From: Gnetum montanum
Taxonomy: Eukaryota; Plantae; Gnetophyta
Reading direction: 5' to 3'
NCBI GenBank assembly: GCA_015680685.1
Contig: MNCI01001119.1
Coordinates: 1-58,897 of the forward strand
DNA: 58,897 nucleotides
Of this stretch, positions 3,407-52,240 are shown in pieces. The notes under the pieces were generated by a model that saw only the letters and a program-made list of their open reading frames with translations, did no database searches and was not told the origin of the DNA. Positions within the stretch are counted from its first letter, which is position 1. Every line of letters starts with the position of its first letter. A program made the translations under genes and the position numbers.

Positions 3407-3525
3407 CTTTGTTGTTTGTGTGCTAGCTAGAACTTAGGAAATCTTCACATTGTTGGAATGAACCCTTAGGGTTGGTTATCTTACAATTAGTGAAACAAAA
3501 ATTATTGCACACTAAATAGACAATT

Positions 3526-8830: not shown

Positions 8831-8958
8831 CATAATGAGAATCAACCCTCAATCCAACAACTATCGACTATCGAAGATCATGGAGGGACACTAGGGTTTT
8901 CAAAGTGAAATTTATGGTAATTTTAGTTCTAGAATATGGTTTTATGTAATACTCCCAA

Positions 8959-10928
8959 TGTGACGTTTGAAAACATTAGTGGCTAGAACACCAAGAGGTC
9001 ACAGGCGTACAACCTAACCCCAAATTTGTGCAAAGGCCAAGATGGAAAAATGAAAAACAAGGTGCCCTAAATGGTCTAGTCAATTAGACAAGGACTTACA
9101 TGGTGTTAAAATGACCATTTGTAGGAAGAATTTATTGAACATTATGTGTGCACACTAGGACAACAAGTAAGAGCATAGCAAAGAGTCCTGGCCTGAAAAT
9201 AGTGACGTGAATGTGCAAATGTGTATTGATAGTAAANGTGAAAATAGTGACGTGAATGTGCAAATGTGTATTGATAGTAAAGAAATGTAAGAGTTATGCT
9301 TAAAATTAGAAACAAATTCTTAGAAAAGAAATGAAAAAAAGGCTTGATAGTAGAGAAATGCACCACCTCAAAACTGGGGAGCGTAACTTTTGCTTGAGCA
9401 GGAGGTAAGAGTGGTATGTGATGTTAGGCAGGCACAGTGGCAGTGTAGTTGTGTAATTAGAGTCTCTAGGACATCAAGGTCATAGAGGTAGTAGCTACAA
9501 GGGAGCCTAAACTTGTTGGGTTAGCTATTGCCACATTCTACTAGTGCAAAAGTGGACTACGTTGCAGTACTCGCCAAGGTGTAAAGCTTGAATGCTCAAG
9601 TGTGGGAATGACAAGGATGCTCAGGAGGCTTGAATGTTCAATGCTCTTCTAATTTTCCAAATTCTAAAGTGCTAAATGTTAGGGTGTTTATAGAGTTAGG
9701 TTTAGCATGAAATTCGGATTGAGTGCTATTTGACATGGATGCCACATGGCATGAGCATAGATAGGATTACGCTGACATGTTATGCTCTCATGAGAGTAGC
9801 AAAGTGTTATGCTCTCATGAGAGTAGCAAAGTGTTATGCTCTGAAGGACAATAATGGGTACCCAGAGACTACCAAATTGTTACCACACTACCTAGACTAC
9901 ATGTGCCAGAGTGTGAGAGACTGCAATGTACCTACAAACAATGTCAAGACAATGCAACTTGGAGTCTATGCTTCGGGACTACATCTTCCCCTTGTTCTAA
10001 GTAAGGCCAAGCATAGGAATAATTTCAAGGATTAATGGGAGGTTCAAAAGAAGTGCAAACTACTGATCTTGGCTACTGGAGGGATGTCAGAGTTGAGATG
10101 AAGTTCAATGCCAAGTTCTAGAGGCTTTTGGAGGCTATCAAAGGCATTTTCCTAGTGTCAAGCTAGCTACGCTCTAAAGTGTAGCACAAAACTTGGTGAA
10201 ATTTTGCAAAATTTTGGTTTGCCATACTGGTTACAATGGCTACACTATAGAGCATAGTAGAGTGTAGTAAGGATACTTTGAAAAATTTTGATAAAATCTG
10301 CAGTCTTCATCCATGGCACGCTGGCTATGCTCTGGGGCATAGCAAGGTAGGCAGCCTCGAAAGCCAAGAAACATGCCAAATGCATCTTCCATGTTAAGAT
10401 AACTTGATAGATCCTTGTCCAAAATTTAGGCAAAATTGGACACTAAAACTTATGTCATTCTCGCTATGCTATGAAGTGTAGTAGCCCAAAAGATAGAAAA
10501 CTTGCCAAACTATTTTGTTCATCCTAAGTACTTTTTGACAAACTTTAGCCTAGTGCTTAGACGAACTAGTAATTGGGACATGTGTCAAGCTAGGTATGCT
10601 AGGGAGTGTAGCAATCTTGATAACTTGGGAGATAGAAAATTTGCCAAACTATTTGGTCCATCCCAAGAAACCCTTGATCACTTCTGGCTTGACACTTATG
10701 CAAACTGGCAATGGAAGTGTGTGCTACACTAACTATGCTGGGGAGCATAGTAGGCAAACTAGGAGCATAACATGACACTTAAAAAAATTTTGCAAAAAAT
10801 AGGACTCAATGTGTGCTACGTTTTCTACACGGAAAAGTGTAGCACCAAACTTAGAAAAAATTTTCCAAAATTTTGACATAGACAAATTTGCCATTGAACT
10901 GCAAAAGCTCGAAATTGATGATGCTTCA
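8959..10928 (-). repeat. 3' LTR of element A
   Basis: Homologous to 36896-38503; starts TGAAGCATC (minus) next to the PPT; its U5 end resembles the element C LTR end at 43228. Confidence 0.85.
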
Positions 10929-12788: not shown

Positions 12789-15700
12789 CTAGGTGTAGTA
12801 TGGCTTCAGGTACAAGTGGTTTACAAGGTTGGTAAGCTCATTACCTTCTAGATCAGCAAGCTTGAAGGCTCTATTATCATATTTATTTATGACCAAGAAA
12901 GGCCCTTCTTGGTTGGCTAAGAACTTGTCCAAGGGCTCACGAATGATCTTGAGGACTATGTCCCCCTTCTTGATTAGGTGTTGATGTTTATTGTGATGGT
13001 GTTTTTGCCATTGCTTTTCTTGGTACCACTCGATGCGATCAAGTGTTTGCATGTGCTCCTCCTCTATAGACTCAAGGTCGATGGTTCTCAACTCATTATT
13101 TTGAACCACATCAATGAAGCTTGAAAGGATCATGTGAAGCGATGGGACCTACACTTCAAGAGGCAACATTGCTTTTGATTCATACATAAGACTATACGAC
13201 ATCTTACCTATTATTGTTCTACATGTTGTATGGTAGGCCCATAGCATGTAGACTAGTTTTTCATGCCATCATCACTTACTATTGCTAAGCATCCTCTTCA
13301 AATGTTTGATGATGACCTTGTTCGTAGCCTTTGCTTGACCATTTGCCTATGGGTAGTGCAATGATGAGAAGGAATGTTTAATGCTAAGGTTTTGACAAAA
13401 GGCTTTAGTTTCTGCACTACTAAATTGTGTCCCATTATCTATGACTATCGTTATGGAAAGACCAAATTGGGTCACTATGTTATCTAGGATGAATTTGCAA
13501 ACTTGCTATGATGTTATCTTCCTAAGGGAAATGGCTTCAACATACTTTGTAAAACATTTAGTTGTGGTAATGATGAAGCTATGTCCTATAGAAGACTTAG
13601 GTGTTATAGGCCCTATGATATCCAACCCCCAATGTTGGAATTGCCACGTGATTTGTGTATGATGTAGTTTAGTGGGTGGCACATGCAGTAGGTTATCATG
13701 TCACTGACACATGTCAAATTTCTTGACCTTGGAGACACAATCATGCTCCATGAAAGGCCAATACTAGTCTAGATGTCTAATTTTTGCTACCATTTCCTTG
13801 GGGGCTATATGACCTCCACATAGTCCCTCATGGACTTGGTCAATGATCCTTTATGCTTCACTACCACTAATGCAAGTTAACAGTATTCCATCATAGGATC
13901 TATGACATAAGGTGCTATCACCTACAAGGACATACTACTATGATCACTTTCATATTGCATCTTTTTTGGTGGAGGCTAGATTCTACAGAGGCTCTCCCTA
14001 TTAGAGGTATGCCTTAATATCATCATACCACTCTTGGGTGTGAGCTATGCTTATGGATGTGATGCTTATTGCTTGAGTTATAGGTTTGATGCAATCCACT
14101 ATTGAAGTGGACAAAGCAAAAAACATGTTTGGTGCTATGCTTAAGGTTAAAGTAGCTAATGCATCAGCTATGGCATTTTCGTTACTGGGGATATGTTGAA
14201 CATATACAATTACAAATTGTTTGAGCAAGTATTTTGTCAAATCACAGTAAGGTTGTAGATGTTGTCCCTTGCAAGCATAAACCTCTGTGACTTGGTTAAT
14301 GACTAGGTATGAATCTCCTTAGACTACTATGTTATGGATTCCTAACTCTTGAGTTGCTAAGATATCTCTAAGGAGACCTTCGTACTTTGCCACATTATTT
14401 GTACAAGGAAATGTGAAGGGTCAGATCTCCCTAGAGAGGAACTTGATAATGGTAGTGGCACTACCACCTTGTGTGATTGAAACATCATCAAATTGTAAAA
14501 ATACTTCAATGTTTGTGGGTACTTGGCTTATACTATTGACATGCTCATCCAGAAATTCTAGATCTATTATTGCTTGATTGTCTATGGGTGAAGCCATGAG
14601 TTGTGTGGCTATTGCTTGACCTTTTGTGGATTTTTGTGCTATGTATTGTAGGTTAAACTTCATGGTTATTACCTTCCATCATGCTATTTGACTACTTTCA
14701 TATATGTTCATTGTAATTTCCTGAAGTACATTACTTTTGTAGATGACATTAACTTGACTACAAAATAGGTACTGTCTTCACTTTTTAAATGCAAAGACTA
14801 AGGTGAGATAGTTATTCCTCACACCATTGTATTTTTCCTCATGGACCACTAGTGCATAGCTTAAGTAATAAATAGGCACCTCTAAGCCATTGTCTCACTT
14901 TTGGCAAAGTAGAGAAGCAATGGATGTGTCTAAGGTTGTAAGGTAAATATTGAATGGCTTATCTCCTTGTAGAGGGTAGACTATTAGAAGTCAAGCTAGC
15001 TCCTGTTTTAGGTTTTCAAATGCCTCTTGGCATTAAGCTATCCACTTAAACTAGACCTCCTTTTTGAGCAAATGTTGCATTGGCTGCAACTTGTTAGTCA
15101 ACCTTACGATAACCCTATGTATGTATTGTAATCTACCTTGTAACACATGTAATTCCTTAATGTTTGCTAGTTGTGCTAATTTGGTGATAACCTTATCCTT
15201 GTTGGGGTCTACGCATATACCTACTTCTGATACTACAAAGTCTAACATGTGACTAGTTTTGATGCCAAAGACACACTTTTTTGGATTTAGCCAAAGGTCA
15301 TGTCTAAGGAAACATTTGAGGATGTGATTCAAGTCACCTACGTGGTCATGAGCTAATTTGGACTTAACTACTATATCGTCAACATATTCATTAAGCGCGT
15401 CTAGTAGATAGTGACTAAAGATATACATCATTGTGCATTGGTAGGTTCCTCCTACTTTCTTTAGTCCAAAGGGCATCATTGTATAGCAAAACATCCCCCA
15501 GGGGGTCATGAAAGTAGTGCTAAGTTGGTGCTGTAGGTTGATTTGGATTTGGTTGTACCCTAAGAACTTGTTCATAAAGGACAACAAGGCATGAATAGCC
15601 ATAGTATTGATGAGTTGGTTAATACTAGGCAATAGGAAATCATATTTAATGATTGCCTCGTTTAGGTCCTAGAAGTCTATGCAAATGCATATACTTTTGT

Positions 15701-16272
15701 TTTTCTTAGGAAAAATTACAATGTTTGAGACCTAATTGACGTAGTCAACTATGTAGATAAAACCATCTTTGTAAAGCTTAGTGATTTCATCATAGATAGC
15801 CAACACCACCTCAAGCTTGACTTTATGAGCTTTTTGTTTAACTAACTTTATGCAAGGATCAAGAATAATGTTATGCTATATTATGCGAGGCTCTAAGCCT
15901 GGCATGTCTTTGTAGGACCATGAAAATGCCTTGACATTATCGATAATGACTTTAGAGATACTTTGTTTGATTTAAGGCTCTAACAAGGAACAAATTTTTA
16001 ATGTTTTCACCTCACCTTCACATGTTACTATAGGGACTTCTATGAGGTGATCCTCAGTTATGTCACTTGCTTCTAAGTTTAAAGCTTTGACTAGATGGTC
16101 TGGCTAGTCTAGCAATGTCTCTAGGGATGCTACATTGTTTTCATAAGTGAATGGCTTGAAATCTAGAAGCTCAGTGTTTATGCATCTCGTGGAACCACCA
16201 TAAGGTCGAACAAGACTAAGGGTGAATGAAGACTCTCGTATGCATTTATTTTGCAATCCTACTTAAGAGATC
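12789..16272 (-). pseudogene. pol: Decayed pol of A: RT (TPWGMFCYTMMPFGLK, YVDDIVVKS), RNase H, archaeal-type RNase H (LQFDDVS..QGGSA; QHIPSNENAIADALA), integrase (..EGPFLV..HLYLKPYYT)
   Basis: ORF-track fragments 15051-15632, 14421-14663, 14001-14240, 12789-13133. Confidence 0.9.
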
Positions 16273-16810
16273 CTACAAAACAACTAGAAAAATGTCAAAT
16301 GGCACTTGTCTTAATAAAGAAAAATGCATAAAATAAGGAAGATAATGTCATGAAAATTTAACTAACTATGCAGTATGTAAAGTAATTTTTTGGAGTCTTA
16401 ATTGACCATAAAATTGCCAGTTTAAGGTCATAGCGAACCATAATTTATGTAAGAGACATAGGTTTAAGCAAGTATTAAGAGGTTTGAAATGTGGGGCTAA
16501 GCTATAATGTCCTAGTTTAATTATCATATGCGCATTCCCAAATGATGGGGTTACCTAATGAAGATGGTATCTTTTCATAACAAGTGTTATTGCCATCTTA
16601 ACAAGACCCAAAATGGTAGTTGTGATTAATGCTCGAAAGGGCATGTTGTAGTAATGAACATGTATTTTAAGGTAACCTTTGGGGATTTGATCTAAGGCAT
16701 TTATACCCAGGGTTAGAGGTCATACCAACATGGGAATGGTAGAGTTGGTAAAGGCAAGTCATGGGGTGGCAAAGCTAGTATAGGCAAGCCATAGGAAGCC
16801 AACTGAAGGG

Positions 16811-16818
16811 TATAAATA
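16811..16818 (+). promoter_or_regulatory. Candidate TATA box of the antisense accessory gene in A
   Basis: GGGTATAAATAGGG upstream of a purine-rich leader and a donor-like AG|GTAAGG at ~17088. Confidence 0.45.
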
Positions 16819-17299
16819 GGGGTTTTACCATAGTAAACCTATCATTTTCAATGTTAGAGCCAACTTTCATCCAAGCATATCATGGTCAAGGCAAGGGAGA
16901 CAAACCATAGCAGTGATAGAGGGAAGCTAGAGTGCAACAGGGAGAAAGCCAGAGCATAGCAACCAACCATGATGCACCAAAGCAAACGCAAACATCCCAA
17001 CCTCACCAACATCGATGAAGGAGAGCGTACCCTAAGGTGCCTTCCTAGGATGCATATAGAGGACCATGAAGAGATGCCATTAGCTAGGTAAGGTATTATG
17101 CTCTATCCTTGTGATTTTTTCTCCTTGCTTTTTCTTGTATGTTTCAAGGTTTTTTGGGCTTTAAGGATAGCTTTCTGTGGGTAGGGAACATTGTCGCTGC
17201 CATGTCCAACATGGGCCATGACCAGGGATGGGAGTGCACATAATGCAGTTTTTCTATTTTCTTTGTTTTCACCCTTTTTGAGCATTTGGGTTGAGGGTT

Positions 17300-17880
17300 T
17301 CTGGATGTCTTACACCATGATGCAAGACAGGGTTTTCTGCGCATCTTGTGCCACAGCATGGAATAGGGTTATGCCATCTCACAACATGATGTAGGAAAAG
17401 GGTTTTTGGCATCCCACATCACAATGCAAAACAAGGGTTTTTAGCATCCTGCACTATAGCGCGAAACTAGGTTTGTGACATCCTACATTATGACGCAAAA
17501 TAGGACTAGGCCAAGGCATCTTATGGGTGATGATAGAGTGTAACAATTAGGGTAAGGTGACTATGAGGGTCACATCCATCACACCTAGGTGTCCCTCAAA
17601 GTGTAACAAAATGTTAGAAAAATTATAGTTTCCTAGTACTACACTTCATAGGTGACGTAGTGGACAATTAGAAAAATTTTGAAGTTGTTACGCTCTGTAG
17701 TGAGTGTAATTAACACTTTGAAAACTTTTTGCTAGTTGTTATGCTCTATGGAGTACATAACCAATAGTTAAAAAATTTGAAAAGTTTGGTAGTTGTTACG
17801 CTCTACATGGAGCATAATGAACACATACAAAAATTTTAGAGTTGAGGAGGTTACGCTTTGCAGGGAGCATAATCGGTAGT
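17300..17880 (+). repeat. Diverged short tandem repeats, including a GTTACGCTCT motif array
   Basis: GTTACGCTCT/GTTATGCTCT at 17687, 17738, 17795, 17850; GGTTTT..GCATCC units at 17320-17500. Confidence 0.55.
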
Positions 17881-18279
17881 TTGAAATTTTTTTGATATTT
17901 TTATAATTGTAATTCTTGTAGAAATGTAAGTGTTAGTGTTGTGCCTGATTGGGAACTAGGCACATTAGATGGGTATGCTAATATCCCTTTCTTGTGAGGC
18001 CTGGTGGAAGGCTAATCATGTTAAATATAATTTTTTATGAATTTTTTCATTTCTAACATTTTCCTTTTATTGCTATTGTGGCATTGTAGCGTGTTGCTGA
18101 AACCTATCCTCATCATAGTTGAATTGGTGGGCATTTTTTGTTATATGAGCAATCTTGTATAAAATGTGCTTGCACCAAACACACATGTCGAACAGCAGGT
18201 GGTTTGGTTTAGGTTAGACATACAAGAATTCTTAGAATTTTTACTCTACCACTTCAGTGTGATGATTTGGTTACACTTG

Positions 18280-21200
18280 TTGGCCGAAGTAGTGGACGTC
18301 ATAATAGAGACACTATTACTTGAGGTAAACTGAGCCATTCTAAGGTTCATGTCTAATGAGCCTATTGATGATGAAGGAGTAGGGAGCTTAGGCTACTACC
18401 AGAAAGGCCTTAGGCTTTTATCCAGGATCTAGGGAATGCCTAAGTTTCAATGCTACAACAAAAATAACACTATGTTTATCACTCAACGCACACACACTAT
18501 TTTCCAAAATCCACCTTGGATTGTATATTGTGCTAGAGGGTGAGCTCTGTTGTGATTTCTTATATTACCTATTATTTCATGACCTAGAATGCTAACTACT
18601 CATGTCTATTATTAGGTTTTCTATTGACACAAATGGCCTCCATGATGAAGAGGAAGCATCAAATTTGACCAAAACTAGCCTACAAGAATTCTCATCTACT
18701 AAAAATGTTCATGCTAGAATGATTGGGAAAATTTGGGTAGATTTGGTAGCATACCCTCATAGGTATTCCAAATGTTACGAGAGGTGTCAAGCTCTCGACT
18801 GATTGGACATTGAGTGGGAAACTAGTATACCAAGTGTGAAGGAAGTTTCAATCCCACTACCATCCTCCTATACACCATTTGTGCCACATAAGTCATATCA
18901 CTTGTTTTCATGCAGTTTTTATTTTTTTTGTCATCATGTTACTAATTTTTCCTTTGCTTATTATAGTTGTAGCTAAGTCAAGAGAGTTCATGGTGATTTC
19001 TTTGGGGCATACTGAGGCCACTCTCCTCTTTAAATACGGTGATGTTGAGAGCTCATAACACTAGTTGTGCTATGAGGCCTCAGTGGAAGTAGCAAAGAAT
19101 CTTTAGCAGGATAGCCTCATGGATCTCTTCTTAGCCATCAACCCAAACATCCCAGTGCCCAATATGATTGCCCTAATTAACTCCTTCATCGAGAGTATCG
19201 ATCACTTTTGCACATGGGTCTGTAATGTTTAGGTGATCTTTAAGATCATAGATGAACTCTTTATGAATATTTTCAGCATCCCCTCTAAACATTTACTAGT
19301 GGTAGAAAATATCAACAAGGACCTAGACCATAGAGGAGATGTTGAGAAATGGTTGGGTACTCAAAAGAGGCATAAAGGTATATCCATGAAGGTGGTGCAA
19401 GTACCCATGATCCACCAGCTCTACCTAGTCTTTCGAGCTTGTGCATTCTCCAAGCTACTTTTCCAAGGAAAGATCCTTGGGGTTGAGCAAGCTTGGGTCA
19501 TGAAAGACATGATAGAGGAGGAGACACAGTACAACGGGGCAAACTACCTCATCAATGGCCTATAGGCTGAAATCATTAATCTATGTACCAACCTCCAAGC
19601 ATGATCACACCTACATTTTTCTTTCTTCATAGCATGCTTATGAAGGTTTGTGGAACTTTTGATGATCCATGAGAATGATCAATGAATGGTGCAAGATTGC
19701 ACTGAGATCTCCAAGCCATGGATCTACCACCTATTCTACACCACGTAGTCATAGGACCCCCCGAAGGCAATTGGCAAGTCATTCTCAATGATGACTAAAG
19801 GACATGTGGGGCAATCCTACCACACATGTGATAGTGTTAGGGAGGCTACACCAACCAATAGTGGCAATACAACAAGATGGGCATGACTCATTGCTGAGAT
19901 GATGAGGTTGTTGAGAATAAAGATTAAGTAGACTTACCCCACGAAGGAGCCCATGCATGTAGTGGAGGAGGGGGACAAGAAGCTACAATTCAAGCTCCAC
20001 AACATGTGCTCAAAAATAGTTAGTAAGTATGCATTATTTAATGTTTCTATAAAGTGTCATACTATCTTATATTCATTATTAGACATTCTAAATAGAACGT
20101 GTGTAACATAGGCAAGAGGGCCCCTATAGTGGTAGAGGAGCTTGTAGAGGATGACGTTCATCAACCCAAGGGACACATGGTAGATGAAGACAAACAAGAA
20201 GCCGTCAAAGTGTTAAGGAAACTTGAGGAAGAAGGGTTGTAGTTTGAAGATGGTAAGCTTAAGAATTTCTTTGATGGAGTGTAGATGGGAAATCCCCCTA
20301 CTCTCACACCTAAGGGCTTGTTGGGTAGGAGATCTACACCACCATCTTCATTTTTTTTTATGTTTTTGGTGGTTTTGTTCTATTATTGGTTGTTGATTAC
20401 TTGATGATCATAAAGTGTATTATGTTGCAATGGCTGATGCTTCTACTAATAATTTGACATCAACCTCCACCTTTCGTACATAACTGTACATGAAAACTCT
20501 ACATAAGTTTTCCTTCATGCAAAGTGTGGTAGATGGTATGATAGACTGCCTCAAACAGATAGACCTTGAGATTGGTATATTTATTTTACTATTATTATAT
20601 TTTTCTTGTTTTATTACTAATTTTTTGTTTGTTTTGTAACTAATGTTATTTCGCCTATTATGGAATAATAGGCTTGTAGCTCAAAGGGACCCGAATAGAG
20701 TAGTCCAAGTCAATGTCCTACTTGAGTTCCCCTCGAAGTGGAGCAAGTGCCTCATCACATATATAATGAGGCAAGCAGGTGTGTACTATATTCTACATGA
20801 GCATTGTGGGAGTGTAGGCAAGTAAAAAATCACTTGTAGAGATAGGTACAAGAGCTTCAAGAAAAGGGGCTGAACTAGGAGATAAGACTAGAAGACCTAC
20901 AATCCTACTAGGACTTCCTAATGGCACACGATAAGCCAAATGGTAGTTAATGCACAACTAAAATCAATTATGCCATGTACTAGTTAGCTATTCATGGAAA
21001 AAATGAGGTCATCCATGAGGTTATTGAACAATGGCTATAGATGGATCTCTTGGTGAGAAAAAATCAAGATTGAAAGGACTACTATAGTACAAAGGTGTAT
21101 CAATGGGGAAAAACACAAAAGAATCACAAACATCACTACAACCTAGAGCACGAAGTGTACCACATGAAGTATAGAGATGATTTTGTGCAGCAAAAATGCT

Positions 21201-21690
21201 AAGAGATATTCCTTGATGCAATCAGTGCAAAATAGGCTTACAAACTATTCACAAGCAATGTAGTGTTGAGTGAGTCCCCAGAAAGATAGATCACTATACC
21301 TTTTGAGGAGGTAACTTCTACAATGTTTTCACCAAGGTCATCAACATGGATGACCATAGGAAAAGGAAAGACCCACATGGTCATTGACCTGGGTAAGGAA
21401 GACTGGACATGTATGTTGCAGCATGAAATCCTCTGATGCTTAGAGGTTGGCCTTGACAACATGCCCCTAGACATGGATGTGGGTCCTTCTTAGGTTGGTT
21501 TAGCTTACTTTATTATTTCTTTACTTTATTATAATTTTTCATGTCGCCTTGTTTATTGACTAATTTATTATTTTATTTCCATTTGACATAGGTTCTAGGT
21601 GAGGGTATGAGACCAAGTGGAGTAGCATATGAAGAGAAAGAGGAAGATCCCTAGTCCCTATTGCACACTACAGGCTGAGATGCTTAAAAT
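18280..21690 (+). pseudogene. Decayed multi-exon antisense accessory gene inside A (PMD/DUF1985-like central domain, tentative)
   Basis: Exons homologous to 54765-58239 (FRACAFSK..LGVEQA..YNGA), separated by AT-rich introns ~18540-18615, ~18887-18966, 20023-20111, ~20330-20430, 20575-20671, 21494-21591. Confidence 0.75.
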
Positions 21691-22164
21691 GTAGCCCTAA
21701 TATTAGGTAATTTTGTACTTTTTTTTGATGTTTCATGTTGTGGATGTAATCTTGAACTATGTATCTTATTGATGATTTAATAAAAATATGATAATTATTT
21801 AATTTTCATTTTGTTATGTTTTATGTAATATTGTGATAATTTAAGTTATGATTTGGTTGATGCAATAAGGCCCCTTGTGGGCCCCATGCTAGTTTAAGGC
21901 CATTTTGGGCCATCTCTTAAAAGGAAGGTGGTTGCCAGTTTTAGGCCTTGGCGGGCCATGTGATAGTTTAAGGCTTTTTCAAGTTACATGGTAGTTTAAG
22001 GTCTTTTTGGGCCTTATTTTTTTATTTTTGTTCTTTTATTTTTATTTTTATTTTTGAACAAAGAAAGCTAAATGAAATCATAACTAATGCAAGATGTAAA
22101 CAATAACACAAATCGTAACTATATAGACAAAGGGAAAAAAGGCAAGTTAAACATGGAAGTGAAC

Positions 22165-24988
22165 TAAGGGCATGCCCTAGTCATGTAGGTGCTTTCTAAC
22201 ACAATGTGGGTTAAGTGGTGCATAAGGCCTAGGAGGCATAAGATGGTATTCCCCTAGACCTTCATCTACCGCAAAGAAGGGTAATTCTACCCATAGAGCT
22301 TCCTCATGGAGGTCACTTTCCTTACTTGGTTATTTAACATCGGTCAAATAACATTGACCGTCATTACAAATGGGTGGTGTATCTTTAGAGAACTCTACAT
22401 CTAACCCTTGTTTAGTATCTACATTGTTAATGGTCAAAGGGACTACATTGTCACCATAGATCACAACCTCCCCACCCTCATAGGGTAAGTGGATCTCTTG
22501 GTGGATAGGTGAAGAAATGGCCCATAGTTAGGCTAACCAGGACCTCCTAAGATTAGGTTGAATTTAGGCATTTCTTCAAGCACAATGAAATTAGCATTTG
22601 TATGGAATTGCTTCCCTGCGACAAAATTTATCATGACTATCCCTTTTACAATAACACATGCTCCATTGAAGGACTTCAAACATTTCATTATTGTTGGAAT
22701 ACTCTAATCAACCAAGCCAGGCTTATCAATGATGGGGAATGGGATAACATTGGTTGCTACCCTATCGTCAATGTGCACCCTGCAAATTTTGTATTAACCT
22801 ACATGAATCATTATGAACATGGGTGTAGTGATTACCTGATCCTTTTTAGGGTCAACTTTGACTGCCTCATCACAAAATGTCAAGGGTTTTGACCTTGACT
22901 CTCTAGTTGTGGGTGGGAACATTATGGCATGGATGGAATTTTAATTTGCTAGCATCTCTTCTTTAATAGGAATAGATTCCAACATGCGAACCAAGGCCTT
23001 GTGGTAAGCAAGAGAGGTCATGAGCAAGTCATATAGGCTTAAAGTTGTATTTTTCTATTTTAGAAACTACTTAGCTTATGCTAGCACATCTAAAAATTCT
23101 TTTCCACCATCTATTATTTTGGTGATTTTTACTTCCTCCATGTGTCCTAGGAGGAAAATTTCCCAAGGAGGAGATTTGGCTTTTGGTTATGCCATGGGCC
23201 TTCGAGCCTTGGTGCTTGTCTATTGATTGCTCATGTTTGCATTGGTGGTTTGGGACAATGAGGCCATGGCGACAGCTGATAAGGAAGTGGGCTTAGGAGG
23301 ACCTAGCTCTATGCACTCCTTAGTCATCTTGTTGGCAAGACACTCATCATGTCTCTTTGGGTAGGTAGGTCGTGATGCAATTTCCATCACTGACCTCTAG
23401 GTAGATTGGGGGTCAACATCTTTTGGCAACCTCATGACAAAAGGTGTTTGGGTTGCCATTGTTGTAATGTGCTATGTGGCCCTAACCACAAAGGGCATCA
23501 TTGGTGCCTAAGGTGGCACTTTGATGAAAAATGGTGTCTATGGTCTAGTTGATGTTAAGGCTCCAGTGTCATCAAAGGGAACACAAAGCACAAATGGTTC
23601 ATGGGTTGGTTCTACATCGTCATCAATGCTAATAGCATTGATAATGTAACCTACATCATTGGCATTGAGTGGGTCCTTATAGACCTTCATGGATTGGTTC
23701 TCTGGTCAGATAGGATTGCTTTCATTAAGGACCAATTTTTCATAATTAGTCATGTGTTGAATGTCATCTTTCAACACTAGGAAATAGTATGTGTCATGGC
23801 CATGCAACTAATGATGGTTGCAGAACTAATCCAATCTAAAATTCTTAGGGACTGGGGGCTCATTTGGCATAGTCATTTAAGGATTTCTTAGGACCTCATA
23901 GTACCTCTCATGGTGTATCCATGCATCCTCTGACATTTGTTTGTGTTGAATGTGCCCAGTACTAAGTAGCTAATCTAAGAGCTCTAATAGCTTGATTGAC
24001 AAGGGGCTATACTTTGAGCAATCCTTGTGCTCAAAGTTTGGCCTTTGGAAAGCTCACCCTATGGCTGCCAATGATGTGGATTGGCTAGTTCATGTAGTGC
24101 TAGAGCCCAATGCCTTGTTGTTGGTTGGGAATTTAAGCATCTTAGCTACTGGCTTGTTATTGTAGGGTTTAGCTTCATTAGCCATAGCTGCAATGGTTGT
24201 TGTGGCCTTTCCCTTTTCTTTATCTTTTTTCACATGCACATTTTTGTAGGCCACAAAGGCTGGGTCCCTATTGGCTTCCACTGCATCTTGTATGCTCTTT
24301 GTCTAAGCAAAAACTTGGCTAAGAGAGCATAGGACTAAGTAGTATAGCTTCAATTTGATAAAATCATTTACTGTGCCCTTGAAGATAGCCAGCAGGTGGG
24401 TTTTAGATATCGGCTCATGGATTTTGTTGAGGGAGGCACTCCAACGTTGTATAAACTTTTGCACTAACTTTAACATCCCTTGTTTAACATTCATCAGTTG
24501 ATCTAGCATGGCCTCAAGCTTCAAGTTATACTTGAAGTGAGTCACAAACTAGCTTAGCAGCTCCTCTAAAGTTGAAAGGAAAGCTCTAGGAAGTACACGA
24601 TACCAATTGAGAGCTTTGCGAGTCAAGGACATGGAAAAGATGCAAATGATTGCATGTGGCCATGCGTGCAAAAGTAAGCACTTAAAATGGAATGTTACTA
24701 AGTGAGTGTTGGAATCCCCTTCACCATTGTATTTTATGAATTGGGGCAATTAAACCCCAAGAAGCAGTGTTAGCTTCTAGACTGTAAGGCTGATGGAATC
24801 ATCATGATAGAAGTCCATCATGTGGACTATTTCTAATTTGGCCACTTTAAACCATCTAACTTCCTCCGTGAGAGTTTGGATGAGTTGGAATGCTTGATCC
24901 AAACTCAAAGATGCTACAGAGGGTTGCATTGGGTATGTTGCTGGTGGTTCCATCAAATATTCCACAACCCTGTTGTGGGCTATGCCAC
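22165..24988 (-). pseudogene. gag: Decayed gag-protease of A (C-terminal part)
   Basis: PQFIKYNGEGDSNTHL, SLTRKALNWY, VKQGMLKLVQKFIQRW, CxxHxxxGH motif ~23790-23825, protease region ~22440-22760. Confidence 0.85.
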
Positions 24989-26648
24989 TAAAACACCACC
25001 AATTTTGGCCTAATACTATGAAACAAGAACTACTTAGTCTCTTTTTAGCTTTTGAGAGGCAAAAATTTGACTAAGGCATGGAAGTCACGCTGGGCTTGTC
25101 AAGCTGAGCTTGCCCCCAGCGTGAGCAACTACAACGACTTTAAGATCAAGTGAAAAATGATCCAATATGAGGGTGCAAGTCATCTTCATAGGGCCATTGT
25201 TATCCACTTCAAGTTTTAGGATTTGAGAGTTCAAATTTTGGGCTAGATTGTACAAATTTTCTTGGTCACACTAAGGTCACGCTGGTAGCGTGAGTCCAGC
25301 ATGAGCAACTACAAGGACCTCGAAATCGAGTCAAAATGATTTGAATTCAAAGGTGCAACTCATCCTCAAGGTTCGTTGATGACTAGTTGAAGTCCCAGCC
25401 TCCATAATTCTAGACTTTAGGTCCAAAATTACTAATCTTTTATAGGACACATTGTGGTCACACTGAGCTCATGTTGGCAGCGTGAGTCCAATGTGAGCTA
25501 CCAAAAGTAGTTCAAAACAAGGCATATCCAAACTCAGTTTTCGACTTGCAGATCACTCGTAGGGTCAAACATAGTTAGGAAATTTTTGTACTCAAGAAAT
25601 AGGCTTCAAAAATTAAAAATTGGTATGAAATGTATCATTTTCAGCTCACTCACATTGAGGTCATGCTAGCAGCATGAGTACAGTGTGAGTATTGATCATG
25701 TCCAGTCAAAAGCACACCAAAAACATGTTGAGGACATGCCACGATAAAATAAACTCATGCTGGAAGCTTTGGTGAAATAGAGATGACTCAAACTGCCACA
25801 AAACCACTTGCATCGACACCCTACAGTAGTCAATTCAGGGATCGAGAAGTTCCAAGTGAGCTGGAGTCAATTTCTCTTGTTGTACACTATCATTTCATTG
25901 TAAATTTTCATCATTTGTGAGCTTGTCAAGCTCTTACGCTTAAAATTGTATCTGCTTCTATGCATGTAAGCTAGCTTGTGTAAGCCAATACATGATGTAA
26001 GATACAGTGCATCAGGTCAAGAACGTAGCTTGCCTACGCATGCCCATCAAACACTTGTCACATAATCCGTCTTCCTCTCATCTCTCAGCCATCAATCTCA
26101 TCCATGAATTCCGCACCTGAATCTAGAAAAACCTTATAAATACCCTATCCATTCACATAAATAGGGTTGGCAATTTTAAAGGTTGATAGCTTTGGGAACA
26201 TTGACTAGCAACTTTGGGCACTTGGGCACATGTGACTCATAGCATCTTAGCACCTGAAACACATCACTCTGGGGCTTAGCTCTTGACTTGCCATCTACAC
26301 CCATAACTACACTTTGACTGGTGCACATCCTTGTTAAGTAATATAATATAGTTCATTATTTCCTTCCATTACATTATTTTCTTTGTTCTAATTCATTTTA
26401 TGCTTCTTCATATGCTTCGTTTACATTTCGTACGTTACTAGTTACGACAACCCCAACGCAAGCCATAGCTTATGCTCGAGGAAGTCCTTGGTTGATTTGC
26501 ATGCAAACCATCCAAGCTACTCTTCCTTCATTTCTTTCTTTTCCAACTTGCCCTCACACAAAGGTAGGATCGGCTGTGTCTCGCCAACAATCTTTCGGCA
26601 TTTGGTTTTTTCCCTTCCAACCTTACGTCGATGATTTCGGTCAGCACA
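24989..26648 (+). repeat. 5' LTR of B
   Basis: Colinear with 33460-35151; TATAAATA at 26135; ends ...CAGCACA. Confidence 0.9.
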
Positions 26649-26654
26649 GTAAAG

Positions 26655-26672
26655 TGGCACTAGAAGGAGGGC
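26655..26672 (+). promoter_or_regulatory. Primer-binding site complementary to tRNA-Asn
   Basis: TGGCACTAGAAGGAGGGC vs TGGCGCTAGAAGGAGGGC (reverse complement of the plant tRNA-Asn 3' end). Confidence 0.8.
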
Positions 26673-26996
26673 CTATATTATTTACCATCTCATCAAAATG
26701 TTGATTTCTCTACCCTTTAAAAGTTGTGTAGACTAAGTGTTGAACTCACGCTGAGCTTGCTCAAGCCCACCCTAGTCTGCACATACTAAATTAATCAAGC
26801 GTACAACCCTGGAAAACTCTTACGTTACGGCCAGCACTTTAAACTCTACAATTGCATCATTAGAACCCAAACAACGTACACATGCTACTCAAACAAGATA
26901 CTTCATAGGTAGCCAGCTAAGTAATGTTTCCATCACCACCATTTAGCAATCATAGTGAGCTCCTCTGAATACTTGCAACCTACATCTTTCCTAGTA

Positions 26997-27190
26997 CACG
27001 CCAGCTTGTCAAGCCAGCTTATGCATGCCAGCTTGTTAAGCTAGTTGATGCACGCCAGCTTGTCAAGCCAGCTTACGCACACCAGCTTGTCAAGCCAGCT
27101 TACACACGTCAGCTTGTCAAGCCAACTTACGCATGCCAACTTTTCAAGCTAGCTTATGCACACTCAGCTTGTCTAGCCCAGTTTACTCAC
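26997..27190 (+). repeat. 27-bp tandem repeat (~7 copies) in the B leader
   Basis: Unit CACGCCAGCTTGTCAAGCCAGCTTACG. Confidence 0.85.
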
Positions 27191-27197
27191 ACTTGCT

Positions 27198-30100
27198 ATG
27201 GAATCTTCCTAGATCAACACAGCGACACTGCCCATCTCTAACTTTGGGGTCGAGACCTCAAACCCTGTGACTGCGATGGAACCCATAACTATCATTGAAT
27301 AGATAAATCCTCAAGGTCCAACTTGCCAGTCACTTAGGCTACAGGGCAAAGAACCTACTTATGCAATCCTCACACCAGAACAATATAACTTCATTTGTGT
27401 GAAGATTCAAGCCAACCTGCCTATCAATCACGTATAAAGAGAAGCAAAGAGAAACTATGAGCTCATTTACAAGGGAGTTCATGAGTTCACTTCCTCAGCA
27501 TTTGATATAATCCCCCTTTATGAGCCCCATCATCAACTCATATCTTAGCTTCTCATGGCAAGGAGTCAAGCCTTATAGCCATCTCCGATAGAGCCTCAAA
27601 GTGGATAGGAGGAAGATGACTTTATAGCCCAATCTGAGCATGGGGCTTTATACCATACCGTCAGTCCTCATGCCCATACAAACCCATCATTCCAACCTTT
27701 CCTAGAAGAAGCCATACTTCTTCCTTTATCTATAAACACTCGAGCACTAGCTTCTCTATAGGAAGTAGCCACTTCCATTCCCACCTTCTCCATGCCCAAC
27801 ACTCAATTTGATATGTCCATCTCCATCATACCTCTAGTCACTGCGTTACCTTTTCCTCCGCAAGTACAGTCCCAACAACTGCAACCTCCAACTAATGCAA
27901 GATCAATCTTCTAACCTCAAGTAATTAGGATACCATTAGTTATACTAGCTTCCACATCCACCCACTACATACCACAAGTACAAACCCATGGATCACCTCT
28001 GATTACTTCATCCCAACACATTCAGGATGTCACCTCACAACCTATGGCTGGGTAGTGGGTTTCACCAGCTGTTCAGGAACCCCAACCTACTGACTACAAT
28101 GTACTGCACCCTGCAATCCCATCCTTGAATGTTTCTTCACCACAACAACTGACAATCCAACAGTCTCCATTTCCAAAAATAATGCAAAAATCAAACTATT
28201 ACCAATTGCAATCTACTCAACCAGCTGGCTTGCCTACCGCCCAAGAGTGGGTAGACACAAAGAACATGATGCACTCATTAACTGAGGAAATAAAGTACCT
28301 TAAAACTACAAACACTGAGGAAGTCAAGGTGCTAGATTTCTACAAAGATGACCCAATCCACCCTTCAGTTCCACCCTTAACCTTACCAAATTGAATCTCA
28401 TTACCTCAACTAGCCAAATATAATGGAGAAGAAGATCCAAATACCCATCTAGTAACATTTCGCCTAGAATGTCTATTGCTTCAGGCCTGGCCTCATGCAA
28501 TTCTATATGTATTTGCTATGTCCTTGATAGGAAAATATTTAGACTAGTACCGAGCATTACCTTGTAACTCCATATCCTCTCTAGAGGATTTGTTACATTA
28601 GTTCATTACCCATTTCAAATATAATTTAAAACCTGAGGTCACACTAGATGGTTTGATTTAATTAAACAGGCGTTGTTAGAGCTAGTACAAAAATTTATCC
28701 AAAGGTGGAGTGCAGCCCTGAACAAAATTCATGAGCCCATCCCTAAAACATATTTGCTTACCATCCTTAAGGAAGCCATGAATGACATCATTAAATCAAA
28801 AATTTATTACTTGAGTGCTCGTACTTTGAGTCAAGGATTCGCACAAATTAAGAACATAGAAGAGGCAGCGCAAGTAAGTAAAGACCTAGCTTACATAGCC
28901 TTTAAGAGCTAACATATGAGGAAAGATAAGGATAAATCCAAAACAATGGTGGCAACAGTGGCAGAGACATTCCAACCTAATCATTCATGACAGAAAGGAA
29001 ATAACTCGCTGCTCCAAATAGCCATGAAAGAACCACATCTATGCCTACACCCGAATCTTCCTCAAATAAAAACACCAACATGGGTCACACTCGTACATTC
29101 GAACGAAAATATCCCACTCAATATAAACCCTTGCCTATGAAGCCTTCACAATTGTTAGATCAACTTCTAAGGGCCAGGTTAATCAAACAAAAACAAATGT
29201 CCCCCACGGTGTTCCAAGAACATGATCGATTATGTGAGTTGGCTAAAAACCTAACTTTAGCAACAGCTAATGAGTCTCCCATTCTAAGAGGCTTTAGGTT
29301 GGACAGATTTTGTGAATATCACCAATGGTGTGGGCATGGAATTAACTACTGCTTTACTTTAAAATAAGATATACAACACATGATTGACAAGGGTGAAATA
29401 GTATTTGACGAGGCAAACCCAATAAAGCTCCAAAACCAACCCATGGGAGTCTACAAGGACCCTCTCAATACTAAAGACTCATCATACGTGATTAACACTA
29501 TTCATGTGAAAAATGGGCAAGACACCTCTTGAAAACATTTTGTAATCTGCAAACCTTCTGGGACTATGCCTACCTCAACACCTCCCCGATCCCCTTTCAT
29601 CATACGCACATTCCCTGCACCACAAAAACCATGCATCATTTGCATACCTCCTTCTGTCACAATGGTAACCATACCATTAGAAACTTGATCCACTTCCTTT
29701 GTGATTCAGGTGCCAAAACACCTTGACATGCAACCCCCTACAGTTCCCCTGAGACCCTTGTGAGAGTGCCTTGTTGACAGGCTCACAAGAGAGTGCCTAG
29801 AAAAGGAACATCATGAGCATGAATTGGGGTCACTAAAGCCCATACCACTAAATGTTGTTCCTATGGTTCCACCCACCAATGAGCCTAGCACAAGCCATCG
29901 AGATAAGCATACCAAGACTCCCAGTGTCCCAAACTCAACATCCTTAGTTCGCAACACAAGAATCCCTCCATGAGAGATACGAATGCTGGGTCAAATGGAC
30001 CAAGTATTCACAGACAAGAGCATCCCAAGTGGTAAGGATCCAGCGAGTGCACTAACCCAAGTCACACAATCTTTGAAACAAAAGAACACGTCCTTAAGCC

Positions 30101-30958
30101 TATACGATCTAGTAATGACGTCACTGATACATCAGGAAGCTCTTGTGTGTATGTTGACTTCAGTTTTGTTAGCAAGGACCTTCCCACAGATGAGCCATCC
30201 ATTTATGTAGTACTATCCTCACAACCTCAAGAATCGAGGCCCACAGCCCTAGAGTTTCATGATAATGATATTAAGTGAGATGAGAAAATTGGAGAGGTCA
30301 CTACAGCCGCTATGTTCATAAAAATACAAGTCAATCACTTCATGATACGTAGGGTGCATGTCAATGACGGTGTAGCAAAAAATGTAATACCCTTTCTTGT
30401 TATCAAAAAACTGGGTCTTACAAAGTAAATACGGCCCACAAAAATTTCCTTTTTAAAAGCCTTCAATGGTTCCCGTGTCATGGTAAAGGCATGCTTACCT
30501 TGGATTTCATAGTAGGGGACCAGTTCCCCACATCGGCTGAATTCATAGGGGTTGATGAAATGCTAGGGTTTAATCTGATTCTAGGACAACCTTGGTTAGC
30601 TCAACCTAGAGTCGTATCCTCACCAATCCATCAAGAAATCCACCTACCCTTTGAGAGTGGTAAGATCATCATACATGGGAACACGGTGACATCAGTTACT
30701 TCCTTGCATTCAGGAATGGATCAAGGATCAGAGGTTGAGTTCTTTGAACCAAAATAAGAAACCATGAGCCCACTTCAAGGCATGAACCAATTGTTAACCC
30801 ATGACCCTACTAGAACTGAGGAAGCACTAGATGTCATAGACATAGGAGCCATTCTTGTTGACGTCTCTTGATCAGAGCTACATTTTGACATCTCCAGTGA
30901 AGGGGAAGGTGAGTATAAGATCGTACCTACATGCCCCACGCCTCACATCAAACTATGA
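27198..30958 (+). pseudogene. gag: Decayed gag-protease of B
   Basis: AKYNGEEDPNTHL, DRFCEYHQWCGHGINYCFTLK, protease RVHVNDG...FNLILGQPWL. Confidence 0.85.
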
Positions 30959-31449
30959 AGAAAAAGGAACAACTAAATAACTAGAGCAAACTATCAAGAA
31001 TCCAGAAAGATGTTAAACTAGTAACCATTTGGTATGATGTTAGACTACCAATGAATGTCTGTAATGATGTTAAACTAGCCATGGTCAGAAATGACCGATT
31101 CCTTTTAAGTTTCTTAAAGCTATTATCGCTTTCATCCCACTATGGCCTAAAACTAGTAATTCCTCTTTCTTTGTTCAACACAGAAACAATACCATGACTC
31201 TAAACTAATGTGCATGGCCTGAAATGGCCTTAAACTAGAGCTCAATATGTTTCAAGTTTACAAACTCTCATTACGTTATGTCAAATTTTCATTTACATGT
31301 CACAAGTTGCAATTTCAATTCATGCATTCTCGTTCCTTTTCTTTTTACAAATATTTTCCTTACATTTTGTTCTACATTTTGGAATCTCATTTTACATTCA
31401 GCTACACACATATGTTCACAATATGTCTGAGAAAATAAGAAAAAGAACA

Positions 31450-31472
31450 ATATATATATATATATATATATA
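31450..31472. repeat. (AT)n microsatellite
   Basis: Direct read. Confidence 0.9.
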
Positions 31473-31615
31473 AAATATTTAACGTCAACATGGCAATAGA
31501 ATGCCAACACATTATGCCACGATTAAATCCATATAATTACATCTATCCTCATACATTTCCATTAAACATAAAAAATTCAAAACATTTGGTAGCTAAAGCT
31601 AGACTAATAGGTAGT

Positions 31616-31850
31616 TCACACATCAGTACTAGGAGGGGGCTAGCCCCCAAAATCTTAGACATCATCTGCTCCTACTCCACTGGTGCCAACCTCATCATTA
31701 CTATGTCCCTAGAATGAAATGAAAAACAAACAAATAGGTAAGCATAACAAAAAAAATCATGAATACAAACCTAGAAGAACATTAACACTAACACTAAAAA
31801 TTATAAAACCATACAAAAGTAAGCACCATAATAAAACACTCACAGGTGAA
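31616..31850 (-). pseudogene. Remnant last exon and last intron of the antisense accessory gene in B
   Basis: Exon 31616-31708 reads GHSNDEVGTSGVGADDV*DFGG*PPPSTDV*, matching the last exon of D; intron 31709-31843 has GTGAGT...TTCATTCTAG on the minus strand. Confidence 0.8.
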
Positions 31851-31970
31851 GAGGGCCTTACTTAGTCACCAAGGTGTACAATAACAGAGCATTCAAAACT
31901 TACTAACATGGATGGGAATGAGTTTGTTAATCCCACAAATCACCTATACCTGAAACCATTCTATGTCTAA
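31851..31970 (+). pseudogene. Integrase C-terminal tail of B
   Basis: GPYLVTKVYNNRAFKLTNMDGNEFVNPTNHLYLKPFYV*, matching the A and D integrase ends. Confidence 0.85.
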
Positions 31971-31989
31971 TGAACTTGAGGTATGTAAC

Positions 31990-32315
31990 TGTCCTGGAAT
32001 CATGACCTAAAACTGATACCATAGAATGGTCCTGGGGCTATGACTTGAAACTAGCACCATAGAGTGTCCTAGCATCATGATAGTAAACTAACACCATAGA
32101 GCTCCATCCGGTATGACACTAAACTGCCACATTTGTCTACCATGACATAAAACTAGCATGTAGAGTCTGCTAAGACTATAAACTAGTTTTCCTCTTTACA
32201 GTCTGCTATGACTATAAACTAGCACTACATCGTTTGTTATGACTCTAAACTAGTGCCATCCAAAGGGTTATGACATGAAACTAACCCACAATAGTCCGCT
32301 AAGACTATAAATTGT
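31990..32315 (+). repeat. Diverged 3' UTR tandem repeats (B)
   Basis: Recurrent ATGAC..TAAACTAG units. Confidence 0.65.
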
Positions 32316-33405
32316 TGACATCATTGACAACTAGGAAATACTTGAAAAGATATGTTGCTATAATTAGTTATATGTGTTGCACAAAGACTTGCTACATAAC
32401 CTGTTTCATGGACCCTGATGAAGATGATGCTGTTCATGATTCTATCTACTTTGAAATCACACATGGTGGCTCGATCTCCTTGGTTATATTCAAGTTTAAA
32501 GTGCTTATTTAACTGAATCATTTGTGGTTTTCTTGTCTTCTTGGAGTTATGTTTGTAGGAGAACATGCTCGAGGCGTTCGTGCATAGATGTAGTTCTTCA
32601 TGACAACAAGGTATCATATTCCTCCTAATGCATGCAACTGGGTTAATCAATCCATTCATAAGTACATTCCTGAATCTTGATACATTCTATTTTCCCCATC
32701 ATGTTCCCCTTATCCTATTCAATTACACCCCCTTGATACATTCTACTCATCCCAAAGTTCTTGATACACTGTTGCACACTATGTTTCTCTAAGCAGTTGC
32801 AACGCAAAACACAGTACATGGTACATGATACAAATGCAAGCGCATGACCATGAGTACAGCACTGAAAGCAATCTCTTTCAAAAAGAAAAAAAAAGATTAA
32901 AGAGAAAAATGCATGGAAAAGGTCTTCATGACACCATTGACGTCATAGACCAAAAGACCATTGGCTCTTCTCATACAAGCCCCAGGCAGGAAGGTAATTT
33001 TTTTGAAAAAATAGTTACACTTGTGTCTGAAATGATCATGTNTTTTTGAAAAAATAGTTACACTTGTGTCTGAAATGATCATGTTGCACATCATTGCATG
33101 AATTTGGCTATTTACAACGGGCCCCCATAAAAACTCTAAATAGAGTCCTGTTTCTCCAAAGAACGCACCTCCTATGTCTTGGTTCTGAGTCTGCTAAACA
33201 CTGGCTATTGACAAGGACTAAAAATAGGGCTTGTTCATGTGAGAGCATTCCTCTCCCACAATTACAAAAGCAATTATAACTAAACCCCTCACATCTTAAC
33301 CTACATTGCCCCAATCTCATGTACTTTTGAACATAGTGCGATGACGTCCAGGCAAGGGCCAATGGATAATGCTTGGTACTTGGTTACTCGTGGTGTTTTG
33401 TACTT

Positions 33406-33459
33406 CTTTGTCAATGCCTCTCGGGTGGATTCCCCTAAACATCAACAAAGAGGGGCCAA
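33406..33459 (+). promoter_or_regulatory. Hairpin and polypurine tract of B
   Basis: CTTTGTCAATG...CATCAACAAAG then AGGGGCCAA before the LTR. Confidence 0.75.
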
Positions 33460-44534: not shown

Positions 44535-45035
44535 CCCCCCCTTCAAAGCCCAAATATAGATAGTACATGACCTTTTCCTCTTAGTGGATGAGGCTTTGAC
44601 CAATTTTGAGGCATTTTGTAGCTTCAAAAGTATGAAATATGTGATATTTCCCCTTATGGATTACAACCTTCACATTTACAATGAAATTTTTCCTTGGGTT
44701 TCATGGGGCAAAGGCTACATAATGAAAAATGATTACAACATGAAATTTTTGGTGATGTTTCAATATGGGAAACTCTACATAGTATGCATAAGGATTTGGT
44801 TGTTGGTATGGATACTATTGCCTTGGCAGTGACATTCATCATGATTGTGGTTGTTGCCATTGTTGCTAGTATTTCTCTTATAGTTGAGGATGAGCCCCTC
44901 TTGGATAATAGGGTTATTAATAGGGCTTTTTGTAATTACCTTGTGATTAAGATAATTGTCTAAGCATCTATTTTTTGATAAACTTCAAGTTCAATACATG
45001 TTCCATGGACTCTTGTAAGTGATCCATGACATGAT

Positions 45036-51700: not shown

Positions 51701-52240
51701 GTCAATAGATCGGATGAAACCAGCTTGGTAAAGTTTCATGATTTCATTACGAACTGCTAATGCTACCTCAGGTTTAACCTTTCATGGTTTTTGTTTCATC
51801 GGTCTAAGTTTTGGATCAAGGATGATGTTATGCTAGACTATTTGAGGGTCTAGTCCTGGCATATTAGTATAGGACCAAGCGAATGCGTTCATGTTGTCTT
51901 TCAGCACTTGAGCTATGTCACTGGCTAGTTGTGGATTTAATAGAGTACTCATTTTTAGTATTTTAACTTTTCCATCGGACATAGTAATGGGGACTTCAGT
52001 GAGGGGATCTTCAGTGATTTTGTCAGCTTCTAAGTCTAGAGTTTTCATCATTCCCCTAAAGTAATCAAGTATCTCTTGTGTTGATACCACGAAATTGTTA
52101 TAAGTTGATGATGAGTCTAAATCAATGGATTCTAGATTGACTTCTTGTTGAATGGCCCTGTGTGGTTCATTGATAGACAACGGTGAGAAAAGGTGCTTGC
52201 TATCCATGTGTTTTCCCCTACTAATTAAATAGGGAGCCAT
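48771..52240 (-). pseudogene. pol: Decayed pol of D: RT (YIDDIVV), RNase H (YLATSDSSIASML), archaeal-type RNase H (LYFDGPS..GGSA, QGDSQLIINQV), integrase (HEGLCGGH..CNVCQ, WGLDIIGP)
   Basis: ORF-track fragments 51833-52240, 51461-51739, 50775-51464, 50421-50729, 49917-50189, 49479-49895, 49239-49436. Confidence 0.92.

Follow-up and report, generated by a model that had tools for sequence, protein, structure and literature searches.

A conserved, intron-containing antisense gene in Tat-type Ty3/gypsy elements of Gnetum montanum

We analysed a 58,897-nucleotide stretch of Gnetum montanum DNA (contig MNCI01001119.1; hereafter the window), which is a nest of old plant-type Ty3/gypsy elements inserted into one another. 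Two of these elements, A and D, carry a homologous gene on the strand opposite to gag and pol, with eight predicted exons and, in A, a position between gag-protease (gag-PR) and reverse transcriptase (RT). This antisense gene is real, old and protein-coding, and it is under purifying selection.

Two homologous genes with matching introns

A tblastx comparison of A and D gave colinear matches between 18100-21454 and 54576-58032. With exon-wise alignments, these bear out the original prediction, made from the sequence alone, that the two elements have homologous exons, including all three of the peptide pairs quoted for A and D (FQNPPWIVY and FQKPPGTVY; LVFRACAFSK..LGVEQA and PLFRACTFSK..LGVEPA; and, in the last exon, RPSGV and GPSGV).

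The gene of A lies on the plus strand and is predicted to begin with exon 1 (16969..17087), which encodes a basic N-terminus. It continues through exon 2 (18090..18539), exon 3 (18616..18887, with a non-canonical donor), exon 4 (18967..20022, a conserved orphan domain with 12 stops), exon 5 (20112..20315, acidic, with a tentative 3' boundary), exon 6 (20416..20574) and exon 7 (20672..21493, with a frameshift near its start and 13 stops) to exon 8 (21592..21654), which runs to the stop codon. The introns are at 17088..18089, 18540-18615, 18888-18966, 20023-20111, 20316-20415 (tentative), 20575-20671 and 21494-21591. The gene of D (52755..58239, plus strand) likewise has eight exons, with introns at 52886-54568, 55019-55100, 55373-55464, 56484-56600, 56877-56966 (tentative), 57171-57268 and 58048-58146. 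The predicted products are about 1,050-1,080 residues long. By eye, the predicted first exons of A and D appear unrelated; both are basic.

All seven introns match between the copies, as had been proposed, and their phases, derived by hand from the reading frames, are identical (2, 2, 1, 1, 1, 1 and 0). The match is exact or within about one codon at the acceptor of intron 1, at the donor and the acceptor of intron 2, and at the intron 3 and intron 6 donors; it is looser at intron 4 and the donor of intron 7, where the flanks align poorly, and tentative for intron 5. Both copies have GT-AG boundaries at five of the seven introns; in intron 3, a single site in each copy is non-canonical (the donor in A, the acceptor in D), and intron 5 has AG acceptors and non-GT donors in both. 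The background frequency of GT and of AG in these regions is 0.06-0.075 per base. The short introns contain 51-53% T, compared with 27-29% in the exons.

Purifying selection and decay

Over 840 aligned codons, the antisense proteins of A and D are 34% identical, and codon positions 1, 2 and 3 are 49, 62 and 34% identical. The proportions of nonsynonymous and synonymous differences (pN and pS) are 0.44 and 0.78, with a bootstrap upper bound of 0.22 for omega, and synonymous sites of the gene are saturated between the copies. For comparison, pol of A and D is 58% identical in protein over 1033 codons, with codon positions at 71, 79 and 46%, pN of 0.25 and pS of 0.69. Alignment of the five short introns tested was no better than that of shuffled sequences (z 0.3-1.4), and intron 1 was slightly above shuffles (z 3.0); exon pieces gave z of 2.2-10.1.

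In A, the gene has 32 stops in 981 codons and pol has 22 in 1033 (p=0.13); in D, the counts are 8 in 1024 and 12 in 1033 (p=0.50). The other five frames contain 49-83 stops in A and 44-112 in D. Since the stop rates of the gene do not differ from those of pol, the gene was working when each copy inserted and decayed together with pol afterwards. The claim that the gene is an ancient, selected component rather than a one-off capture is thus supported by codon-position identity, pN and pS, a stop density equal to that of pol, and a fragment of a third copy in element B, described below.

Two alternatives are opposed by this evidence. One holds that the protein is incidental and that antisense RNA damps the element through double-stranded RNA, a role discussed in the available sections of PMC7264820; antisense RNA is indeed seen. 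We consider this very unlikely: the excess of conservation at codon position 2 over position 3 (a difference of 0.24-0.32) and the eight stops in the read frame of D against 44-112 in the others point to selection on the protein, which largely refutes damping as the sole role. The other, that the gene is a neutral nested insertion that reached A and D by chance, might be suggested by the nested window itself; its probability is negligible, as it is refuted by the shared position and direction of the gene across all three elements (A, B and D), by synonymous saturation and by decay equal to that of pol.

Position within the element and descent

Element A is on the minus strand, between LTRs (long terminal repeats) at 36896-38503 and 9267-10928 that are 85% identical over aligned columns (Kimura two-parameter distance, K2P, 0.17). 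Its order is 5' LTR, gag-PR, about 6 kb with the antisense gene, pol, 3' untranslated region (UTR) and 3' LTR, and no assembly gap lies between 9237 and 33042. The 5' LTR (36896..38503, minus strand) has lost its inner end and primer-binding site; the 3' LTR (8945..10928, minus strand) is alignable over 9267-10928, its outer end at 8945 being inferred across an assembly N at 9237. Gag-PR (22176..24983, minus strand) terminates at its own stop and is split upstream by element B; gag and protease were identified by homology among A, B and another element, C, plus a protease motif, with no Pfam match. Pol (12789..16250, minus strand) comprises RT, RNase H (RH), an additional RH (RVT_3) and integrase and is interrupted by stops.

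Element D, also on the minus strand, retains the antisense gene (52755-58239), pol (48771..52200, minus strand; RT, RH, additional RH and integrase), the 3' UTR and the 3' LTR (45030..47075, minus strand, outer end approximate). Its upstream part is lost: a very high-copy element truncates it at about 58623. With Pfam domains in the order RVT_1, RT_RNaseH, RVT_3, Integrase_H2C2 and rve in both, A and D are classed as dual-RNase-H Tat-type Ty3/gypsy elements. This structure is known from ferns, several gymnosperm groups and flowering plants (PMC10508981, PMC13468544; here, as for every paper cited in this text, we refer to the sections available).

The gene does not sit between pol and the 3' LTR but in the interval between gag-PR and RT, a location missed in the original prediction. 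Element B (24989..35151, plus strand), an internally deleted, non-autonomous element related to D that sits within the gag of A, independently confirms the gag-PR side. Its gag-PR stop is followed by the same kind of short-motif array, by the last exon, by intron 7 (135 nt, GT-AG) and by the adjoining 12 nt of exon 7, at which point a deletion joins the gene to the integrase tail (remnant at 31616..31855, minus strand). The terminal stop of gag-PR in A and B shows that the protease is fused to Gag and apart from pol. The short motif forms an array downstream of the gene in all three elements (21887..22005 in A, plus strand), and in A and D it is found a single time upstream of the gene as well. 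A motif related to this array reappears in the 3' UTRs.

B groups with D by its LTR, by its integrase tail (0.79 identity between B and D, compared with 0.68 for A) and by the length of the last exon (30 codons in B and D, 20 in A). Nucleotide identity of the last exon alone does not separate A, B and D (0.73, 0.67 and 0.75). With two whole copies and one fragment, this is a weak test of vertical inheritance, as originally proposed; the three-way comparison is consistent with descent of the gene with the element.

The A and D LTRs are largely unalignable, as had been noted: blastn aligns the A LTR with that of D or B over a terminal patch of about 85 bp only, whereas the B and D LTRs have several blocks in common at 72-76%. 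The purine tract and the first LTR bases are common to A, B and D (10929-10950, 33440-33470 and 47060-47095), and the remaining A LTR is unalignable.

Element C (38504-44300) has a gag-PR on the minus strand that is 54% and 44% like that of A, and may represent a family without the gene. It is cut about 700 bases past its protease and has no flanking motif array.

Antisense transcripts

Sequencing reads were placed at 80% likeness. Among the 21 runs listed, nine DNA runs (five organism labels, three studies) contain part of the D stretch, eight of them with a share of at least 0.31, and no RNA run listed contains the D stretch itself. A joint that skips the last intron of D was present in all three RNA runs of one organism (19, 2 and 6 reads) and absent from the one DNA run. 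In RNA run X11, all 19 joint reads have one orientation, and depth at 57980-58209 is 61.2 compared with 0.21 for the opposite orientation; under the usual library strand convention, this RNA is antisense to gag-pol. The last intron is thus spliced in RNA of related copies. Between its two sides, the RNA joint has letters other than those of D, which leaves neither the precise splice site nor the intron 7 phase of the expressed copies readable.

Summed DNA contig depth, which is not a copy number, is 1,900-2,960 over exons 2-4a of D and 340-940 over its middle exons, compared with 280-670 over intron 1; in A, the exon bins at 18170-19905 have 670-2,690 and intron 1 has 40-540.

For A, the original prediction named a candidate TATA at 16811. 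A TATA-like word is present there, but it lies inside a high-copy insert (16527..16877, strand not assigned) and is probably not the ancestral promoter of the gene; being inside the insert, it gives no sign of conservation. A targeted look showed that a 5-bp direct repeat flanks the insert and that it has a CA end, and contig depth in run X1 is 27,000-36,000 at the insert compared with 359 in the next bin. In all likelihood the insert is a solo LTR from a different family, and it may lend A a promoter.

A motif shared by LTRs and the first intron

The LTRs and intron 1 of each family share a family-matched motif. Its CpG-decayed half-site consists of AGCGT and two further bases, which are AG or AA in the A-type and GA in the D-type. 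Counts of A-type and D-type half-sites are 46 and 4 in the A LTRs, 11 and 0 in A intron 1, 13 and 40 in the B and D LTRs, and 3 and 14 in D intron 1; shuffled sequences gave 0.2-4.3, and the two introns differ with p=3e-5. These patterns were picked after the data had been seen. An 8-mer test untuned to the motif gave the same pairing, with A intron 1 at z 7.0 and 5.9 against the A LTRs and 1.3-2.2 against the B and D LTRs, and D intron 1 at z 6.9-8.7 against the B and D LTRs and 0.2-0.9 against the A LTRs. No long stretch of LTR aligns with intron 1 in blastn, so the likeness is that of a dispersed motif and not of a duplicated block.

Half-sites also form palindromes: five in each A LTR with a 4-bp spacer (0.25 expected), three in A intron 1 with an 8-bp spacer (at 17688, 17796 and 17851), and two in the D LTR with a spacer of 4. 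D intron 1 has 25 half-sites in a single orientation.

The predicted protein

Among ten pieces scanned, A exon 2 matched Pfam NIF with an E-value of 0.0076; D exon 2 had no Pfam NIF match, and its sole match in the PDB was UBLCP1 (E 0.24). A two-sequence profile of exon 2 gave UBLCP1 as the best of two matches (E 0.032), aligned over about 90 residues. The FCP1/NIF family has a catalytic motif DxDx(T/V) and a later acidic pair. Both copies have E-L-x-G at the presumed first catalytic motif and no acidic pair where that of UBLCP1 follows; the catalytic aspartates of this weakly FCP1/NIF-like (HAD) region are not seen. On this basis, exon 2 probably encodes a dead FCP1/NIF-like domain.

PDB sequence searches with exons 4 and 7 gave chance-level matches only. 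AlphaFold models of exons 2 and 4 from two-row alignments had confidence scores (predicted local distance difference test, pLDDT) of 35 and 34 and are unusable for judging fold likeness to VANC or MAIN, two proteins discussed below. A Pfam scan of the A 3' region found no match to PF10536 (PMD) or PF04195 (Transposase_28). A PMD-like pattern noticed in exon 4 by eye was supported by no tool, and we do not claim it. Of 162 pattern matches in a metagenome scan, one locus was kept for inspection and set aside as a chance match, being bacterial and in a non-coding frame; none of 89 viral contigs matched. By eye, that locus (1-6844) resembles an integrated filamentous phage, with a replication initiator, a Zot-like ATPase and small coat genes, and is unrelated. 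Five supplement files of REXdb contain no NIF/FCP1/HAD entry (PMC6317226). A literature search, outside which lay most subscription papers and supplements, found nothing on an FCP1-like domain in a retrotransposon.

Possible functions of the antisense gene

We give slightly less than an even chance to the reading that the protein is a family-specific trans-activator or anti-silencer that binds the motifs in its own LTRs and intron 1. Its antisense orientation would let introns survive copying, because genomic RNA reads the opposite strand. The gene would be driven by its own promoter near the start of pol, and its product would go to the nucleus and bind the motifs in the LTRs and in its own first intron, perhaps as a dimer, as the palindromes suggest. 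Bound protein might then keep or make the family active, with feedback on its own gene, and motif and protein would change together between families, as in VANC. The N-terminal FCP1/NIF-like part might serve as a dead phosphatase acting as a binding module, perhaps for the tail of RNA polymerase II. A more specific version, which we hold to be unlikely, is that this would be VANC-like sequence-specific anti-silencing, the first in an LTR retrotransposon, in which a dead polymerase-tail phosphatase fold and an orphan DNA-binding part co-evolve with palindromic CpG motifs.

Several observations weigh against a motif-binding regulator. In the motif data, A intron 1 is also like the A 3' UTR in the 8-mer test (z 6.0), D intron 1 is without palindromes, and palindrome spacers vary, from mostly 3 in the B LTRs through 4 in those of A to 8 in A intron 1; the motif could also be a host factor site. 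For the protein, the NIF (PF03031) score of A exon 2, 16.4 bits, is under the curated cut-off of 21.8, and A exon 2 found nothing in the PDB and exon 2 nothing in NCBIfam. Homologue searches were likewise empty: an exon 4 profile found none among 1.84 billion representative proteins, word-based searches found none among 746 candidates for D exon 4 among longer proteins or 777 for the exon 4 profile among proteins of near length, and the exon 2 profile found none among 1962 longer proteins. Pfam scans of the exons gave no PMD or Transposase_28 match (PF10536, PF04195), and neither these scans nor the homologue searches identified a DNA-binding domain. As to expression, RNA reads are few and mostly 80-95% like D, hence from other copies, and only one of seven introns is represented among the RNA joints listed for D. 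For A, there is no RNA joint among the 15 joints listed, and none of 437 RNA reads (109-185 per run) is at least 95% alike.

A second explanation, possible though doubtful in our estimate, accepts a real accessory gene but takes the motifs as sites of a host transcription factor that jointly activates the LTR and the antisense promoter. The protein would act later, for example in export or packaging of the long unspliced RNA or in making Pol from a frame 6 kb behind the gag-PR stop. The terminal stop of gag-PR in A and B means that Pol needs splicing or another route, and the failure to find a DNA-binding domain fits this view as well. So does the CGTR core of the motif, which is also a core recognised by NAC factors. 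Ogre, moreover, splices an intron at the same place (PMC4408406). Under a fixed host factor, however, one would not expect the bases beside the core to switch jointly in LTR and intron between families, as they do here. No conserved in-frame sense splice is evident by eye: AG acceptors lie before pol in A and D in different phase, and no RNA joint across the PR-RT interval is present among the joints listed.

A third, quite improbable, explanation is that the cassette is a tamed DNA-transposon or host gene that landed in the PR-RT spacer, is retained for some task in chromatin that has nothing to do with the motifs, and may pass from one family to another. The many introns suggest entry as DNA, a short motif flanks the gene on both sides in the same orientation, and PMD genes of Tat elements are related to those of Mutator-like elements (MULEs) (PMC4408406). 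On the other hand, Pfam and homologue searches found no transposase or host homologue, and the comparison of A, B and D agrees with the gene having descended along with its element. On one side, the gene-skipping DNA joints comprise just 21-24 letters, too few to indicate gene-less elements.

Relation to known accessory genes

The extra open reading frames (ORFs) of plant elements described in the available literature are located either ahead of gag or in the interval from pol to the 3' LTR (PMC7264820, PMC11963269, PMC4408406, PMC6317226), and the literature search described above found nothing on an antisense spliced gene between PR and RT. The closest class is that of the antisense aORF-3R genes, including that of Grande, which is likewise an antisense, family-wide accessory gene in a Tat element; the Grande gene is driven by a promoter of its own, and its product is nuclear (PMC7264820, PMC11963269, PMC4408406). 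The gene described here shares the traits of that class in being antisense, conserved across copies and transcribed (with RNA from related copies), but differs in its PR-RT position, seven introns, about 1,050 residues and absence of a PMD or TRP28 match. Ogre/Retand elements (Tat IV-VI) are marked by an extra ORF with PMD or TRP28, placed ahead of gag or on the 3' LTR side of pol, whereas here the gene is in the PR-RT interval and neither its exons nor the A 3' region match those domains. Ogre (Tat IV) is similar in having PR fused to Gag and a non-coding stretch before RT-RH-aRH-INT (aRH, additional RH; INT, integrase) (PMC4408406). Here, in contrast, that stretch is about 6 kb and contains a whole antisense gene; Ogre has a spliced intron there.

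VANC proteins, the anti-silencing factors of VANDAL transposons, bind short motifs that differ between families and accumulate in the introns and remaining non-coding DNA of their own family (PMC5735166). The gene here resembles this system as an element-borne, intron-containing accessory gene with family-specific short motifs in introns and terminal non-coding DNA (PMC5735166). VANDAL elements, however, are DNA transposons (Mutator-like), neither sequence nor fold gave a link between the two systems, and the present motifs are palindromes that contain CpG. In structure VANC resembles MAIN (PMC13547354), and MAIN and MAIL1 work with PP7L, of a phosphatase family, a pairing of chromatin and phosphatase domains that acts on transposons in Arabidopsis (PMC7156037); PP7, though, belongs to a different phosphatase family than FCP1/NIF. 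A 2026 preprint extends VANC-type activators among DNA transposons, its available sections leaving retrotransposons unmentioned (10.64898/2026.08.24.746577).

The gene is therefore of a known kind, the antisense accessory genes; what is new is its position, its seven introns, its size, its orphan protein and a target motif that can be tested. For decades, plant retrotransposons have been known to carry additional antisense genes, with no function assigned in the available sections of PMC7264820. A candidate target motif that changes in step in the LTR and in the intron of the gene between families turns the question of function into a binding test. Should the protein counter silencing, this would help to account for the expansion of such families to fill plant genomes of very large size.

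Other features of the window

Within A, a GC-rich segment with poly-G runs (35830-36895) lies between the gag region and the 5' LTR and replaces the inner end and primer site of that LTR. A 45-base duplication around the N at 9237 (9194-9282) probably marks an assembly join inside the A 3' LTR; other Ns are at 6025 and 33042. The element that cuts D (58623-58897 in the window) is the start of an extremely high-copy element, with summed contig depth above 800,000 in run X1 and strong transcription in run X11.

Positions 1-8940 hold a plus-strand gypsy element of a different lineage, in which gag, PR and RT are close together and the PR-RT interval has no antisense gene; it is nested behind a second LTR-like repeat (70-1019 and 3046-3408). 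Tandem arrays occur in the D 3' UTR (38-bp unit, 48373-48789), in the B 5' leader (27-bp unit, 26970-27185) and behind the A integrase (29-bp unit, 12666-12748).

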